Assembly (NCBI GenBank): GCA_017545225.1
Contig: JAFWPR010000004.1
Coordinates: 6,115 to 70,114 of the forward strand
Source of the DNA: Clostridia bacterium
GTDB taxonomy: Bacteria; Bacillota; Clostridia; Oscillospirales; CAG-272
Direction of reading: 5' to 3'
Length of the DNA stretch: 64,000 bases
In this document: positions 4,146 through 57,806 of the stretch, piece after piece
How positions within the stretch are numbered: position 1 is the stretch's first letter
Layout: each line of letters opens with the position of its first letter
Made by a program: the position numbers and the translations under genes
Notes under the pieces: model-generated
Database searches by the model: none
Told to the model about the DNA's origin: nothing
Seen by the model: only the letters and a program-made list of their open reading frames with translations

Positions 4146-4372
4146 TTCAAATCTCTCCCGCCAAAGGAAAAGCACGCCGATGGCGTGCTTTAGTTATCTG
4201 ATGAAGTCAGCGTAAACAGTTCGAGAAGGTGCACCCCCTTTGCGGTGCCCTCCGCTTGCTGACGCAAGCGGGATAAAATCCGTCGTGAAATGGGACCCGC
4301 ACCCATTTCACTTTGCTTCGCAAAGACCGCCGGATTTTACGGCGGCCGTCCGTTCGTTTTTCGATATTTGAG
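4146..4372 (-). ncRNA. candidate structured RNA, unit A (unclassified; GNAT-proximal copy)
   Basis: Copy of a ~227-bp tandem unit with three-way junction stems at 4275-4282/4331-4338, 4311-4316/4320-4325 and 4286-4294/4302-4310, plus a hairpin at 4252-4259/4264-4271. The conserved 18-mer is at 4194-4211 and a terminator hairpin at 4171-4189. Confidence 0.4.
4163..4190 (-). terminator. intrinsic terminator closing unit A
   Basis: Minus strand reads AAGCACGCCATCGGCGTGCTTTTCCTTTGG. Confidence 0.6.
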
Positions 4373-4600
4373 TTCAAATCTCTCCCGCCAAAGGAAAAGG
4401 ACGCAAATGCGTCCTTATATTATCTGATGAAGTCAGCAGTAGTTGTTAGAAAAGATACACCCCGGGTTGCGGTGCCCTCTGCTTGCTGACGCAAGCAGGA
4501 TAAAGTTCTCTTGAAATGGGTCCCGACCCATTTCACCCGGCTTTGCCGGGACGAGAACTTTACGGCGGTTCGGCGTTCGACTCTCTGCATTTGGAGCGGC
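4373..4600 (-). ncRNA. candidate structured RNA, unit B (unclassified; tRNA-proximal copy)
   Basis: Second copy with stems at 4502-4510/4553-4561, 4536-4540/4546-4550 and 4512-4520/4527-4535, plus a hairpin at 4479-4486/4491-4498. The conserved 18-mer is at 4420-4437 and a terminator hairpin at 4397-4416. Stems differ in sequence from unit A but still pair. Confidence 0.4.
4390..4416 (-). terminator. intrinsic terminator closing unit B
   Basis: Minus strand reads AAGGACGCATTTGCGTCCTTTTCCTTTGG. Confidence 0.6.
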
Positions 4601-4742: not shown

Positions 4743-4744
4743 CA

Positions 4745-4833
4745 CGGAGAAGGAGAGATTTGAACTCTCGCGCCGGTTACCCGACCTACACCCTTAGCAG
4801 GGGCGCCTCTTCGGCCAACTTGAGTACTTCTCC
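4745..4833 (-). tRNA. tRNA-Ser (anticodon GCT)
   Basis: Minus strand reads GGAGAAGTACTCAAGTTGGCCGAAGAGGCGCCCCTGCTAAGGGTGTAGGTCGGGTAACCGGCGCGAGAGTTCAAATCTCTCCTTCTCCG. It has a 7-bp acceptor stem, anticodon loop CTGCTAA, a long variable arm and T-loop TTCAAAT. No CCA is encoded. Confidence 0.9.
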
Positions 4834-4864
4834 GAATTCACAAAATTATTCTTTTGTACACGAT

Positions 4865-15307: not shown

Positions 15308-15412
15308 TTACAGCGGGATGCGGCAGATGCACCGCAACGGTCGGCCGACCGTTTTCGTCTCCCGGACAACTCCCCGTCCCGGGAGCACTTGACGCGCAAA
15401 TGCCTACTCTGT
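15308..15412 (-). ncRNA. THF (tetrahydrofolate) riboswitch
   Basis: Minus strand reads AGAGTAGGCATTTGCGCGTCAAGTGCTCCCGGGACGGGGAGTTGTCCGGGAGACGAAAACGG...GCGGTGCATCTGCCGCATCCCGCTGT. This matches the conserved THF-I blocks I recall from the Eubacterium siraeum folT riboswitch (AGAGUAG, GCGUUAAGUG, GGGAUG, ACGAA, GCGGUG, GCAUCCGCU). Confidence 0.8.
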
Positions 15413-15438
15413 CATCGCCGTCTTCCGACGGCGTATAT

Positions 15439-19945: not shown

Positions 19946-19963
19946 CCCATTTGAAGGGGGATT

Positions 19964-20010
19964 CGAAGGCGCCCGGTAGTGAATGACAGCCCGGGGGGCT
20001 GTCAGAGCCG
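19964..20010 (+). repeat. GTAG-headed hairpin element, left copy (inverted partner at 21732..21782)
   Basis: cgaaggcgcccGGTAGTGAATGACAGcccggggggCTGTCagagccg. The 19-nt core at 19971-19989 is the exact reverse complement of 21753-21771. Confidence 0.8.
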
Positions 20011-20166
20011 GGCGTGCCCGAAGGAGCGGTCAGTCTTCGTATTTTGCGAAGACTGACTCCGCCGCTCCTGAGACGAATCCCCCTGCTCCGCAGGAGCAGC
20101 ATGTTTGAAAGGCAGAAACTTCGTCGAAAGCGTTTCAATATCCAGTTTGGTGAGAATTATGGTCTA

Positions 20167-21456
20167 TTATTTATCATCTTTGTTTTCTAAGATTTTGCAC
20201 ATTGTTCGAGAATAATCTAAATACTTACCAAAATGATTCATAAGACCATTAGCAATTATCATTGTTTCTGAAAGTCCACGCAAAGTTAAAGGCCAATATG
20301 TAGTGTAATATGTATCATAATCCTCTACACATTGTGGACCAGATAATATATCTCCAAATAGATAATAACAGGCCTTAAAACTGTTAGTTGTTCGTTCTGA
20401 TTGGAACATCCATAACCCTTTTGCTTGCCTGGGGTTAATAAAAATATGGCGATAGGTATATTTGCGAATGAGTATTTGTTCTGTCGAACAGATTTTTATT
20501 TCTTTGATTGCTTTTTCATATATCTCTTTTGTAAAATCAGGATAATTGACTGATAATAATCCGGCTAAATTATCTGCCGTTGAATATAGCAGAATTGCTA
20601 CCTCAGCACTGATGATTTCTTCATTTAGTGAAAGAGGAAGCGGGGTTAATGCCTTGACAAAATAGTCCAAATATTTAGAAAACACATCATACGGCGTGAT
20701 TGTTACTCGAGGATTGTTGTCTTCTTGGGTTTTCAGTAGTGAAAAAAAGCCATGTCGATTATTCTCTTTTTTCTGGTTTTTACGCTCGTTGTTTATTTTT
20801 TGCTGACATACATCAATCTTTTCGTTTGTATCGCGCCAACCAGCAAGTTGAGAGAATGCTTTTATGGCTTTTTCATACCCTTCAATGGTTTTCTTTTGCA
20901 TCTCAAGAATACCACAGTTATATATTTCAACCTTGCGACATATTTCAGCGTTTTGCTGACATTTATTTGCTAGTTTTGCCGAGTTTTTAAAGTCTTTAAT
21001 ACTATTAAATACTTCTGCCAATTCTAAAAATGCTTTTTCTGATCTGGCGGTATCCATAGCTTGTAATGCTTGATTATACTTTTCAGCATTTTTGGCATCT
21101 TCGATCCTTTTATGTATTTGAGACAAATATCCATTGAGTTCTTGAATTATTTCATCATTACCGAAACGTATTGCTTTTAGGTAGTTTTTGTTTTGATCAA
21201 AAGGAAAATCAATTTTTGCAAGATCTTCCTTGCTTCTTACGTGCAATTCCGCCATTAGTTTCCCTATGTATGCGGTCGCATTTTTAGGGTCACAATCAAG
21301 GACTCTTTCACAATATTCATTTGCGTGTTCCCACTCACTGTCTTCAAGGAATATAAAAACTCTTTCAAGCAATGGGTTTTTTTCAATACTTTTTTCTAGA
21401 GCGGAATATACATTCTCACTATTTTTTTCAAGTTCAAAACTTTCTCTGACTGACAT
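20167..21456 (-). CDS. TPR-like repeat protein with an uncharacterised C-terminal domain (AT-rich, probably horizontally acquired)
   Basis: The ATG at 21456 (MSVRESFELEK...) follows GGAGG. The N-terminal half is helical and TPR-like (EWEHANEYCERVLDCDPKNATAYIGKLMAEL). I do not recognise the C-terminal ~190 aa. The gene is visibly AT-rich compared with its flanks. Confidence 0.6.
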   Translation of the reverse strand: MSVRESFELEKNSENVYSALEKSIEKNPLLERVFIFLEDSEWEHANEYCERVLDCDPKNATAYIGKLMAELHVRSKEDLAKIDFPFDQNKNYLKAIRFGNDEIIQELNGYLSQIHKRIEDAKNAEKYNQALQAMDTARSEKAFLELAEVFNSIKDFKNSAKLANKCQQNAEICRKVEIYNCGILEMQKKTIEGYEKAIKAFSQLAGWRDTNEKIDVCQQKINNERKNQKKENNRHGFFSLLKTQEDNNPRVTITPYDVFSKYLDYFVKALTPLPLSLNEEIISAEVAILLYSTADNLAGLLSVNYPDFTKEIYEKAIKEIKICSTEQILIRKYTYRHIFINPRQAKGLWMFQSERTTNSFKACYYLFGDILSGPQCVEDYDTYYTTYWPLTLRGLSETMIIANGLMNHFGKYLDYSRTMCKILENKDDK

Positions 21457-21731
21457 AAAACCTCCAGATAATATATACCAGATTTTATTGTAATTGTAGC
21501 ATACGTGAATTCTATTTTCAAGTAATAGCAATCCGCTGCTTTGTCCATCTACCTAATCATAATTCTTAATGGTGTTTTCTTCTCCTTCCGTCACGGCTTC
21601 GCCGTGCCACTCTCGCCCGCGGGGCTCTGTGCAGACAGAATAAAGAAAAAATGTACTTCATTGCTACCGTCTGTCTGCCGAAGATTGACGCTCTGCGTCA
21701 ATCTTTCCGCGGTCTCTGCCTATTGCATAAG

Positions 21732-21782
21732 CGGCTCTGACAGTCCACCGGACTGTCATTCACTACCGGGCCGTGCGCTTCG
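21732..21782 (-). repeat. GTAG-headed hairpin element, right copy (inverted)
   Basis: cggctctGACAGtccaccggaCTGTCATTCACTACCgggccgtgcgcttcg, which is the reverse complement of the left copy apart from the hairpin loop and a few flank positions. Confidence 0.8.
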
Positions 21783-21858
21783 CTACCCTCAAGGGGAAGC
21801 CTTATTTTGCTCCGCAGGAGCAGCTTGTTTGACGTGCGGTAAACTGAATAATAAAGCC

Positions 21859-21884
21859 GGAGGCATCAGGGGATGCCTCCCTAC
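21859..21884 (+). repeat. REP-like hairpin GGAGGCATC-AGGG-GATGCCTCC-CTAC
   Basis: 9-bp GC stem followed by CTAC (GTAG on the other strand). Near-identical copy at 56300..56325. Confidence 0.75.
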
Positions 21885-21900
21885 TATACCGCCCCCGTTC

Positions 21901-21929
21901 TTGACAACCCTCGCCCCTTTCTGTATAAT
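21901..21929 (+). promoter_or_regulatory. consensus promoter (TTGACA-17-TATAAT) for the GNAT gene at 21959
   Basis: Plus strand reads TTGACAaccctcgcccctttctgTATAAT. Confidence 0.7.
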
Positions 21930-56197: not shown

Positions 56198-56232
56198 ACT
56201 CCCGTGACAAAACGTCACGGGAGTCGCTTTTC
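56198..56232 (+). terminator. intrinsic terminator after the MalY/PatB-like gene
   Basis: ACTCCCGTGACaaaaCGTCACGGGAGTcgcttttc. Confidence 0.65.
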
Positions 56233-56299
56233 TATAAGGTGCGGGCGCCTGAGAGGCGTCCCTGCGGTCATCGGGATGAAAAATCTGCATTTCTTTTTC

Positions 56300-56382
56300 G
56301 GAGGCATCAAGGGATGCCTCCCTACGGGGCAGCGTCAATAACTACATTGTGAGACCGTAGGGAGCGATCCCCTGATCGCTCC
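56300..56382. repeat. inverted doublet of REP-like GTAG hairpins (REPIN/BIME-like)
   Basis: 56300-56325 reads GGAGGCATCAAGGGATGCCTCCCTAC on the plus strand. 56357-56382 reads GGAGCGATCAGGGGATCGCTCCCTAC on the minus strand. The two copies are about 31 nt apart in head-to-head orientation. Confidence 0.75.
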
Positions 56383-56387
56383 GTGCG

Positions 56388-57500
56388 TTAGATTTTGATT
56401 TGTCTCAGAATATCGAGTATTTCCCGAAACTCCGGCTTCGCTTTGAATTCATCGGACAACGGATAATGCTCTGTCATCAATTCAAACATGCGCTCGCGCA
56501 TGCTCATCTTTTTGAAGCGTTCTTCCCGTTCGTAATAAAGAGCGATTCTTTCGGATTCGGGTAGATTGTCAAATGATACCGATTGCTCGGCTGCAAGTCG
56601 AAGATAATGAATCGCCTTTTCATCATCTCCGATTTCAGCGTACAAATGACCTAAATGACCGTAATTATAAATCAGATGAATTCTGTTCTTCGACGGTTGG
56701 CTTTCGCTGTCGGTCATACGGAAGATACCGTTCATATGATTTATGGCTTCGATCTTATATTCGGGAGTAAAAGCGTTATCATAATAACAATAGCTGATTA
56801 TTGCGTTCTGAAGGTGGTATGAAAACTCTTCAATGGCGCGTTGCCTGTTTTCATACCACTTTGAAAAGTCGTGGTTTTTCGGATCAAAGTCAAGTTCTGG
56901 CAGAACGGATTCTTTTGAATCGCTCATGGAGGGTAAACTGTCAGCGATGGTTTTTGCCTGTTGTAAGTATTCTTTATCGAATCCAAGACGTTGATACTTA
57001 CGCATAAGGTGTTCGATCATTAAACGTTTTGAGCGAATTCGGATCGCGTCGACCGTACAATAGTTTTGTATTTTTTCATAAGTTGAGGCGATCTGAGTTG
57101 AGATCAGTTCGAGATTCGGATTTGTTTCTCTGCTTTCTGCAATCTGCAGCAATTCCATATACCGAACGAGAATAGGGTACTCGTTCGGGAACTCTTTTAC
57201 GGCTTTTCCGTATTCGCTCAGAACAGAACGTGCGTCCTTAAGTTTCATATTGTCAAACATATCGACGTACTTTTTTATTGTTTCTTCGGTATGGGCTTTG
57301 TCGATCCCGAGTAAAACGTCGACGGAAACCGAGAAGAAAGAAGAAATAACGGAAAGCATCGATAAATCCGGATAACTTTCGCCGCGCTCCCATTTACTGA
57401 TTGTCTGAAAAGAGACGCCGAGAGCTTCGGCAAGCGTTTCCTGTGTCAGATCCTTTTCTTTGCGCATACGTTTAACGTTTTCGCTGAAGTAAATATTCAT
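56388..57500 (-). CDS. XRE-family HTH transcriptional regulator with a TPR-like C-terminal domain (AT-rich, probably acquired)
   Basis: N-terminal HTH (KRMRKEKDLTQETLAEALGVSFQTISKWERGESYP) and a helical-repeat C-terminus (...GHLGHLYAEIGDDEKAIHYLRLAAE). A GGAGAAGG RBS is present. The gene is visibly AT-rich. Confidence 0.75.
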   Translation of the reverse strand: MNIYFSENVKRMRKEKDLTQETLAEALGVSFQTISKWERGESYPDLSMLSVISSFFSVSVDVLLGIDKAHTEETIKKYVDMFDNMKLKDARSVLSEYGKAVKEFPNEYPILVRYMELLQIAESRETNPNLELISTQIASTYEKIQNYCTVDAIRIRSKRLMIEHLMRKYQRLGFDKEYLQQAKTIADSLPSMSDSKESVLPELDFDPKNHDFSKWYENRQRAIEEFSYHLQNAIISYCYYDNAFTPEYKIEAINHMNGIFRMTDSESQPSKNRIHLIYNYGHLGHLYAEIGDDEKAIHYLRLAAEQSVSFDNLPESERIALYYEREERFKKMSMRERMFELMTEHYPLSDEFKAKPEFREILDILRQIKI

Positions 57501-57576: not shown

Positions 57577-57685
57577 TAACATTTTTGTTGAATTGATTCT
57601 ACGGACAGGAGAATTATTCACCAGATACAAGAATTCAATTTAAAAACCATATGTTTTTTTATTTAGAATTTGGGAGATTGTTGAA

Positions 57686-57806
57686 TGAATTGATTTCCGC
57701 ATCGTTGTGCGGAAATCATGAATTGCGCCCGGCGGGCGCATGAATTGAGCCCCGCGGCTTTCTCTCCGCGGGGCTCGTGAATTGATTTTGCGCACGCGCA
57801 AAATCA
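57686..57806. repeat. array of four different GC-rich palindromes separated by the heptamer TGAATTG
   Basis: TGAATTG occurs at 57686, 57719, 57741 and 57778. The hairpins are at 57692-57717, 57725-57739, 57747-57776 and 57784-57805. The array abuts the lplA stop codon at 57807. Confidence 0.8.

Follow-up and report, generated by a model that had tools for sequence, protein, structure and literature searches.

Hairpins and genes in the window

The stretch of DNA analysed here, called the window throughout, has a length of 64 kb and a GC content of about 58%, and it contains two low-GC genes. The first of these (20167-21456, minus strand, about 37% GC) encodes, if read from the likely ATG, a protein of 429 aa that matches no family in Pfam, NCBIfam or PADLOC. 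Its relatives, similar over about 45% of the length, are mostly proteins with a TIR domain and TPR repeats, and judging by them the product resembles a defence-type protein that lacks the TIR domain. A transposase function was considered for this gene and rejected, as no family matches and the homologs are TIR/TPR proteins. The second low-GC gene (56388-57500, minus strand) encodes a 370 aa protein with an XRE-type HTH_3 domain and TPR-like repeats; below it is called the HTH gene. It is convergent with patB, whose called gene has 387 aa and which has its own classic terminator at 56198-56224.

Three copies of the pattern GGAGssATCnnGGGATssCTCCCTAC are present in the window. Their exact sequences and coordinates, and the location of the third copy on the minus strand in this CTAC-last form, were given correctly in an earlier sequence-only reading of this DNA. 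With up to three mismatches allowed, three matches are found in the window and none in 100 dinucleotide-preserving shuffles. All copies are 26 nt long and fold into a 9-bp stem with a 4-nt loop; as single-stranded DNA they have folding energies of -10.3 to -12.9 kcal/mol (z = -3.7 to -5.7). The reported swap of GC to CG in the stem, with the matching change on the other arm, is indeed seen among them and separates a GC and a CG subtype.

Oriented with the GTAG tag first, the copy at 21859-21884 is a singlet of the GC subtype on the minus strand (GTAGGGAGGCATCCCCTGATGCCTCC), situated between the second copy of the GTAGTGAAT element, described below, and a promoter-like site of a GNAT gene (21901-21929). 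The copy at 56300-56325 (minus strand, GC subtype, GTAGGGAGGCATCCCTTGATGCCTCC) and that at 56357-56382 (plus strand, CG subtype, GTAGGGAGCGATCCCCTGATCGCTCC) are the left and right members of a heterotypic inverted doublet, 56300-56382, which occupies the spacer where patB and the HTH gene converge. The GTAG tags of the doublet point inward, the spacer between its members is 31 nt, and on folding it yields two separate hairpins. The right member is identical to copies that surround a transposase gene in the metagenome-assembled genome (MAG) RGIG3413. Our analysis adds a fourth, decayed copy of another stem class at 56243-56265 (minus strand, GGGCGCCTGAGAGGCGTCCCTGC), where GTAG has become GCAG, so that CTGC is read where CTAC is expected, and the stem has one G-T pair. 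Together with the doublet it makes a cluster of three hairpins at 56243-56382. As there are only three to four copies (three intact and one decayed) in 64 kb, the genome may be poor in these hairpins or may contain relics only.

The neighbourhood of the HTH gene could be compared with two sister species identified via LplA, one represented by MAG RGIG6051 (94% identity) and another with 87% identity. The gene order lplA - HTH gene - patB is the same in all three species, and therefore the HTH gene is an old resident. It is thus not a recent island. Both members of the doublet are common to the window and the 94% species, where one of them has a 26-nt insertion exactly in the loop with intact stems (L253:7290-7345). 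In the 87% species the first position is taken by a different hairpin of the same kind (GGAGGGCAAAGTGCCCTCCCTAC), and the second hairpin is absent. The place orthologous to the decayed copy is intact, as GTAGGGACGCCTCTCAGGCGTCC, in both sister species.

Several other repeated or structured features were observed. The interval from lplA to the promoter side of the HTH gene contains a tandem array of four units (57683-57806, plus strand), each consisting of TGAATTG, a short hairpin with a stem that differs from unit to unit, and CA. Its counterparts are found at L088:4900-4975 (minus strand) and L257:5980-6100; the array is present in the 87% species with hairpin-preserving differences and cleanly absent at this place in the 94% species, and a similar array stands beside a GTAG-hairpin in MAG RGIG6051. 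A THF riboswitch (Rfam RF01831, 85 bits) is located at 15309-15413 on the minus strand. A duplicated unit of about 226 nt with several conserved hairpins (4169-4535) lies upstream of a tRNA-Ser gene (4744-4834); within the unit there is a 55-nt repeat, 4183-4237 and 4409-4463, with 75% identity.

The hairpin family and RAYT-like genes in rumen Clostridia

A pattern scan of species-representative MAGs, one genome per species, revealed many further copies beyond the window: at least 156 copies in at least 117 stretches from at least 24 MAGs, all of them rumen or gut Oscillospiraceae, "Ruminococcaceae" or Clostridia. The largest numbers were observed in RUG12056 (at least 27 copies), RGIG7103 (at least 24) and RGIG3413 (at least 22). 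BLAST comparison of the window with the at least 117 loci listed yields no overlap, and thus the species of the window is absent among them.

Among the matches listed, the conserved part spans only about 30 nt, GC-GGAGssATC-nGGG-GATssCTCC-CTAC-G; beyond it the sequences are unrelated and lack a T-run. About three quarters of these copies have CG..CG at the free stem positions and about one quarter have GC..GC, and the variable pairs are complementary in 154 of 159. The GTAG tag (as CTAC) beside the palindrome, noted in the window from sequence alone, proved to be near-invariant: when hairpins of the listed loci were collected irrespective of the tag, CTAC was found on a fixed side of the asymmetric loop in 153 of about 157. 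A wider set of hairpins in the same loci follows the design GTAG-GG-N7-loop4-N7'-CC, with other stems such as GGGCGACC, GGACGGCT, GGCGCGAT and CGCCGAGC, and more. GTAG is by far the most frequent 4-mer 5' of perfect hairpins in the listed loci (266 of 1483 records), and CTAC follows them in 316. There are 490 GTAG-hairpins in 830 kb of these loci, forming 276 neighbour pairs at distances up to 300 nt, in all relative orientations and with preferred spacings; since the loci were picked by the motif, these densities and this clustering are biased upwards.

The hairpins are predominantly extragenic. With a home-made gene caller based on codon usage, which misses low-GC genes, 16 of the 159 copies listed fall inside called ORFs, mostly at ORF ends, against 80% coding DNA, so that about 90% of the listed copies are extragenic. 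A longest-ORF caller is unsuitable here, as clusters of GC-rich repeats form spurious ORFs and half of the hairpins then appear to be "inside ORFs". The spacers containing listed copies are tandem (51), convergent (29) or divergent (7), that is, there is a deficit of promoter-only, divergent spacers. Taken over the family, the combination of a GTAG tag beside a palindrome with numerous extragenic and clustered copies upholds the initial assignment to the REP type, and the term REP is used for these hairpins below.

Candidate transposase genes were found in the same regions. Three RAYT-like ORFs occur in the listed REP loci, and a search with database proteins confirmed them. Among NCBIfam models they match NF047646 (REP-associated tyrosine transposase) most closely, with E-values of 1e-17 to 1e-22; the IS200 model fits far more poorly, and matches to Pfam Y1_Tnp are weak. 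The NF047646 scores are 63-80 bits against an equivalog cut-off of 80, so most are below it and one, at 80.2, is not. A protein search retrieved 4468 relatives, with names including "transposase [Oscillospiraceae bacterium]" and, in one case, the JGI name "REP element-mobilizing transposase RayT"; for six relatives tested, NF047646 was again the best model (66-74 bits). The only PDB match is 4ER8, TnpA-REP of E. coli, to which both the HUH motif (HvHmi / HMHCI) and the tyrosine motif (YIeeNPaK / YIYINPVK) can be aligned.

RAYT-like Y1 genes adjoin such hairpins in all five species examined. The gene of RGIG2293 has this exact REP and GTAGGGCGCGATGCCCACATCGCGCC on both sides. That of RGIG3413, located between a tRNA-synthetase gene and hfq, has on both sides GGAGCGATCAGGGGATCGCTCCCTAC, exactly the third copy of the window, and GTAGGGCGCCATCCCCTGATGGCGCC. 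The arrangement REP-RAYT-REP is retained in 12 of 12 contigs of these two species. In three more species, REPs of the 26-nt design, or the GTAGCGCGGGC variant, stand beside the RAYT-like gene. The flanking copies of the exact family have the same orientation on both sides, and inverted flanking arises only via the second REP type. Thus the expected RAYT genes flanked by exact hairpins do exist in related genomes, but none was found within the 64-kb window, even by the search with database proteins.

Two RAYT-like loci have unusual structures. In one (L044:3809-3995), two inverted REPs (GTAGGGGCGACCCTTGCGGTCGCCC) lie in frame inside a RAYT-like CDS, and the ORF is open across both. In the other, the 3' part of the RAYT gene occurs a second time, as a fragment with REPs behind it, immediately 5' of the intact gene (L066:3681-3760), which suggests local tandem duplication through the repeats.

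The REP content of homologous regions is variable. Among contigs from different samples that encode an identical RAYT protein, the upstream REPs vary in number and order, and in orthologous spacers whose flanking DNA is about 85% identical between species the sets of REPs differ.

The stem subtypes are not distributed at random among neighbouring copies. Among the matches listed, all 11 inverted pairs at distances up to 150 nt combine GC with CG, and eight of ten direct pairs at such distances are homotypic (Fisher's exact test of orientation against subtype, about 2e-4, with pairs that are partly non-independent). Since inverted pairs are heterotypic and direct pairs mostly homotypic, the stem swap is the mark of two amplified and jointly deployed subtypes systematically paired in inverted doublets, and not of compensatory drift between copies. 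Nine inverted doublets among the matches listed have outward GTAG tags and spacers of 16-42 nt; the tags-inward polarity of the window doublet occurs in only two cases.

The GTAGTGAAT element

The 40-nt inverted repeat around the first low-GC gene (19971-20010 / 21732-21771) is 93% complementary, and each of its arms is a hairpin with a compensatory change. The repeat is present as described in the sequence-only reading, which had joined it to the GTAG-hairpins; however, it is not of the REP family, being larger and differently distributed. Its core GTAGTGAATGACAGnCCnnnGGnCTGTCA is absent from all of the at least 117 REP loci listed. The same core was found in at least 120 metagenome contigs from gut and rumen, including human-gut assemblies, with a contig GC content of 36-63% (loci L133-L252). 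Conservation extends over more than 100 nt and defines a larger element. The two window copies flank the low-GC gene in inverted orientation: the left one (19955-20082, plus strand), of type B, lies 69 nt after a tRNA-Arg(ACG) gene, and the right one (21582-21799, minus strand), of type A, has about 105 nt inserted. This gene and the right element are together enclosed by the two copies of TGCTCCGCAGGAGCAGCwTGTTTGA, a 25-nt direct repeat at 20083-20107 and 21808-21832 (plus strand) that forms a small hairpin with a CGCA loop; it may be a scar of recombination or duplication.

When folded in full length, the element forms a three-way junction (z = -4.7 to -9.5). Its helix P2 encloses G-TAGTGAAT-hairpin-AGAG and covaries: the third pair is GC in 42, AT in 22, CG in eight and TA in six of the matches listed, and at one position purine-purine pairs alternate with Watson-Crick pairs. 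The second hairpin has an invariant CGCA loop and covarying stems of 2-10 bp among the matches listed. The loops C-GAA-G and C-GCA-G, which are unusually stable in DNA, are frequent in the element. The two types differ in the 5' arm, which is CCCCTT..AGGGTAGCGAAG in type A and GGGGATTCGAAGG-like in type B.

A subset of the elements is linked to tRNA genes. Among the matches listed, 18 elements (15 of type B and three untyped) lie 60-91 nt downstream of a tRNA on the same strand, with 14 anticodons represented, and none of the 74 type A copies with enough upstream sequence has this position. In ten of the 11 cases that could be read fully, the 3' end of the tRNA reappears behind the element as a direct copy of 9-40 nt, which begins in the T loop and in some cases extends into the terminator of the tRNA. 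For most of these cases, the 5' arm matches the reverse complement of the same T-loop and T-stem, including bases specific to the particular tRNA. There are two exceptions: the closing helix of L153 is T-loop-like without a match to its tRNA beyond CCC, and that of L194 has no match at all to the upstream tRNA-Cys. A reading of the tRNA-linked form as a tRNA or tmRNA was rejected, as ARAGORN calls the upstream tRNA only and the T-loop-like ends of the element pair together as one helix of 10-11 bp.

No conserved neighbouring gene was found for the element, its neighbours being housekeeping-like by eye, and no RAYT is nearby among the loci listed. It corresponds to no Rfam family, has no match in phage or plasmid records, shows no GC asymmetry across its length, and its sequence appears in no paper of the literature searched. 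From this layout, with a 5' arm complementary to the tRNA and a direct copy of the tRNA 3' end, we tentatively raise the possibility that the element, which folds on one strand and is spread through Firmicutes of gut and rumen, belongs to an undescribed class of non-autonomous mobile elements that bear a guide or copy their target. It may act as single-stranded DNA, in keeping with its wealth of C-GAA-G and C-GCA-G loops, or as a small RNA whose 3' segment matches the target. In any case, the tRNA-linked element is a more unusual object than the REPs.

Interpretation and comparison with known systems

The window hairpins are very probably REP elements of a RAYT-associated family common to a clade of rumen Oscillospiraceae and Clostridia. 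Their role might instead be that of terminators or stabilisers of 3' ends, selected for this function without any link to a transposase. Indeed, the minus strand of 21859-21884 continues with GGCTTTATTA and is detected by a terminator scan, and the preferred tandem and convergent spacers are those that contain 3' ends of genes. However, only this copy in the window has a T-run, which is weak, and upstream of 21884 there is no end of a gene on the minus strand; the family consensus lacks a T-run and its flanks are not conserved. At patB the classic terminator noted above is already present. The copies occur in tandem and in both orientations, the near-invariant tag is polar and not needed for termination, and RAYT genes are embedded among these very repeats, so that we regard selection as terminators as an improbable explanation. 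Intrinsic terminators, that is, GC-rich hairpins with a T-run at the end of a transcription unit, are accordingly not what the window copies resemble. At the same time, a role of the hairpins in RNA is compatible with the REP reading and no rival to it: in the host they may protect the 3' ends of transcripts or act in attenuation.

Another explanation starts from the two low-GC genes, which both REP sites of the window adjoin and the first of which is bracketed by the 40-nt inverted and the 25-nt direct repeats. The hairpins would then be ends of elements or recombination scars left by delivery of these genes, that is, island borders. The association with the edges of low-GC genes, pointed out in the sequence-only reading, is real in the window but does not extend to the family. 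When the lower-GC side of the 90 listed copies with enough flank was compared with random positions, a drop of at least 10 GC points was observed for 5.6% of the REPs and 3.9% of the random positions (Mann-Whitney p = 0.15), and the gene neighbours of REPs elsewhere are ordinary genes. Moreover, in both sister species (94% and 87% LplA identity) the HTH gene and the REP cluster occupy the same place, which shows that neither arrived recently, and the low-GC proteins, HTH_3 with TPR repeats in one case and TPR repeats related to TIR-TPR proteins in the other, do not include a recombinase. Delivery together with these genes is thus quite unlikely. As the low-GC excess is absent and the HTH gene is syntenic, the coincidence in the window is better read as permissive spacers collecting both foreign genes and repeats. 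The proximity of one site to the HTH gene and the palindromic sequence might also be taken for operator-like sites of a palindrome-binding regulator, such as the adjacent XRE-family protein itself. This has hardly any probability, given the at least 156 copies in at least 24 species, mostly 3' of genes and often several in a row, the asymmetry of the tag and loop, and the location of the doublet at the 3' end of the HTH gene, away from its promoter.

As REPs, these hairpins would be short, non-coding palindromes, foldable in single strands, with an unpaired GTAG tag at the 5' side. By analogy with TnpA-REP and REPs of E. coli, a RAYT, that is, a tyrosine transposase of the HUH/Y1 type, would bind the hairpin once it has folded in single-stranded DNA, recognise its GTAG tag, and cut and rejoin the DNA close by. 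Such activity may create, duplicate, invert and delete REP copies, mostly in spacers downstream of genes, and we infer a similar action on the REPs considered here. The stem versions GGAGGCATC and GGAGCGATC would be co-amplified subtypes that normally form an inverted pair, and the two-base difference between them would favour folding of each hairpin alone rather than with its partner.

To our knowledge, REP/RAYT systems have been studied almost only in Proteobacteria, and they are the classic example of how a domesticated transposase sustains a population of miniature repeats. In the literature searched we found no description of REPs or RAYTs specific to Clostridia or Oscillospiraceae, in line with the earlier remark that they are poorly described there; this is not proof of absence. 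Thus the system is of a known kind, and new for Clostridia within the literature searched. The GTAG-REP family and RAYT-like genes of rumen Oscillospiraceae extend it to Clostridia, the regular 26-nt REP offers a substrate for biochemistry, and these repeats would explain many contig breaks and the "hairpin-rich" spacers of rumen MAGs.

The closest known counterparts are the GTAG REPs of Haemophilus, Stenotrophomonas, Xanthomonas and Pseudomonas (Nunvar et al. 2010, PMC2817692) and the GTAG super-family of REPs (Di Nocera et al. 2013, PMC3733652); in the surveys consulted, GTAG REPs are listed only for Proteobacteria, Cyanobacteria, Chloroflexi and the PVC group, with no mention of Firmicutes. 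The present family shares with these REPs a 5' GTAG directly before a palindrome of 20-40 nt, as in GTAGGGTGGGCTTcAGCCCACC of H. influenzae, variants that occur in pairs and differ by complementary changes, extragenic copies that are numerous over the family as a whole and form clusters and inverted doublets, and a REP type common to related species. It differs in the host, rumen Oscillospiraceae of the Clostridia, and in the very regular design of 26 nt with a 9-bp stem and a 4-nt CCCY loop. As with the REP/BIME repeats of E. coli and TnpA-REP (4ER8), a small HUH/Y1 gene is embedded between the copies. However, the present RAYT-like proteins mostly fall just below the NCBI equivalog cut-off for RAYTs, and the arrays around the gene are mixed, with copies of this REP pointing the same way on either side of it.

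Group 1 RAYTs are "also found in the Clostridia" and were reported to have only a weak link to repeated flanking 16-mers, with about 12 occurrences (Bertels et al. 2017, PMC5581495), whereas the flanking hairpins described here reach at least 22-27 copies per MAG. Transposons of the IS200/IS605 type and their miniature derivatives use an enzyme of the same superfamily (Pfam Y1_Tnp, a weak match here) and likewise have sub-terminal hairpins acting on single-stranded DNA. Unlike them, the present proteins are fitted far better by the RAYT model than by the IS200 one, the tnpB partner is absent, the gene keeps a fixed chromosomal position throughout 12 contigs from two species, and the repeats are 26-nt units rather than element ends.

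With respect to the pairing of repeats, two systems are relevant. BIMEs of E. coli pair Y and Z REPs, and the two stem subtypes are deployed together in a similar manner. REPINs are inverted REPs with a short spacer recurring as a unit (Bertels and Rainey 2011, PMC3116915), and inverted doublets do recur in the present family, so that the likeness of 56300-56382 to a REPIN, suggested earlier, holds in this respect but not for its heterotypic arms, their separate folding or the inward tags. Membership in the REPIN class, with near-identical inverted arms forming one long hairpin, was rejected, as all 11 inverted pairs are heterotypic and the window doublet forms separate hairpins. In contrast to REPINs, the arms here are always of different stem subtypes and each folds alone; because the arms are heterotypic, one long hairpin would carry mismatches. 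The strict pairing of subtypes in inverted doublets thus provides a testable rule for the construction of such repeats.
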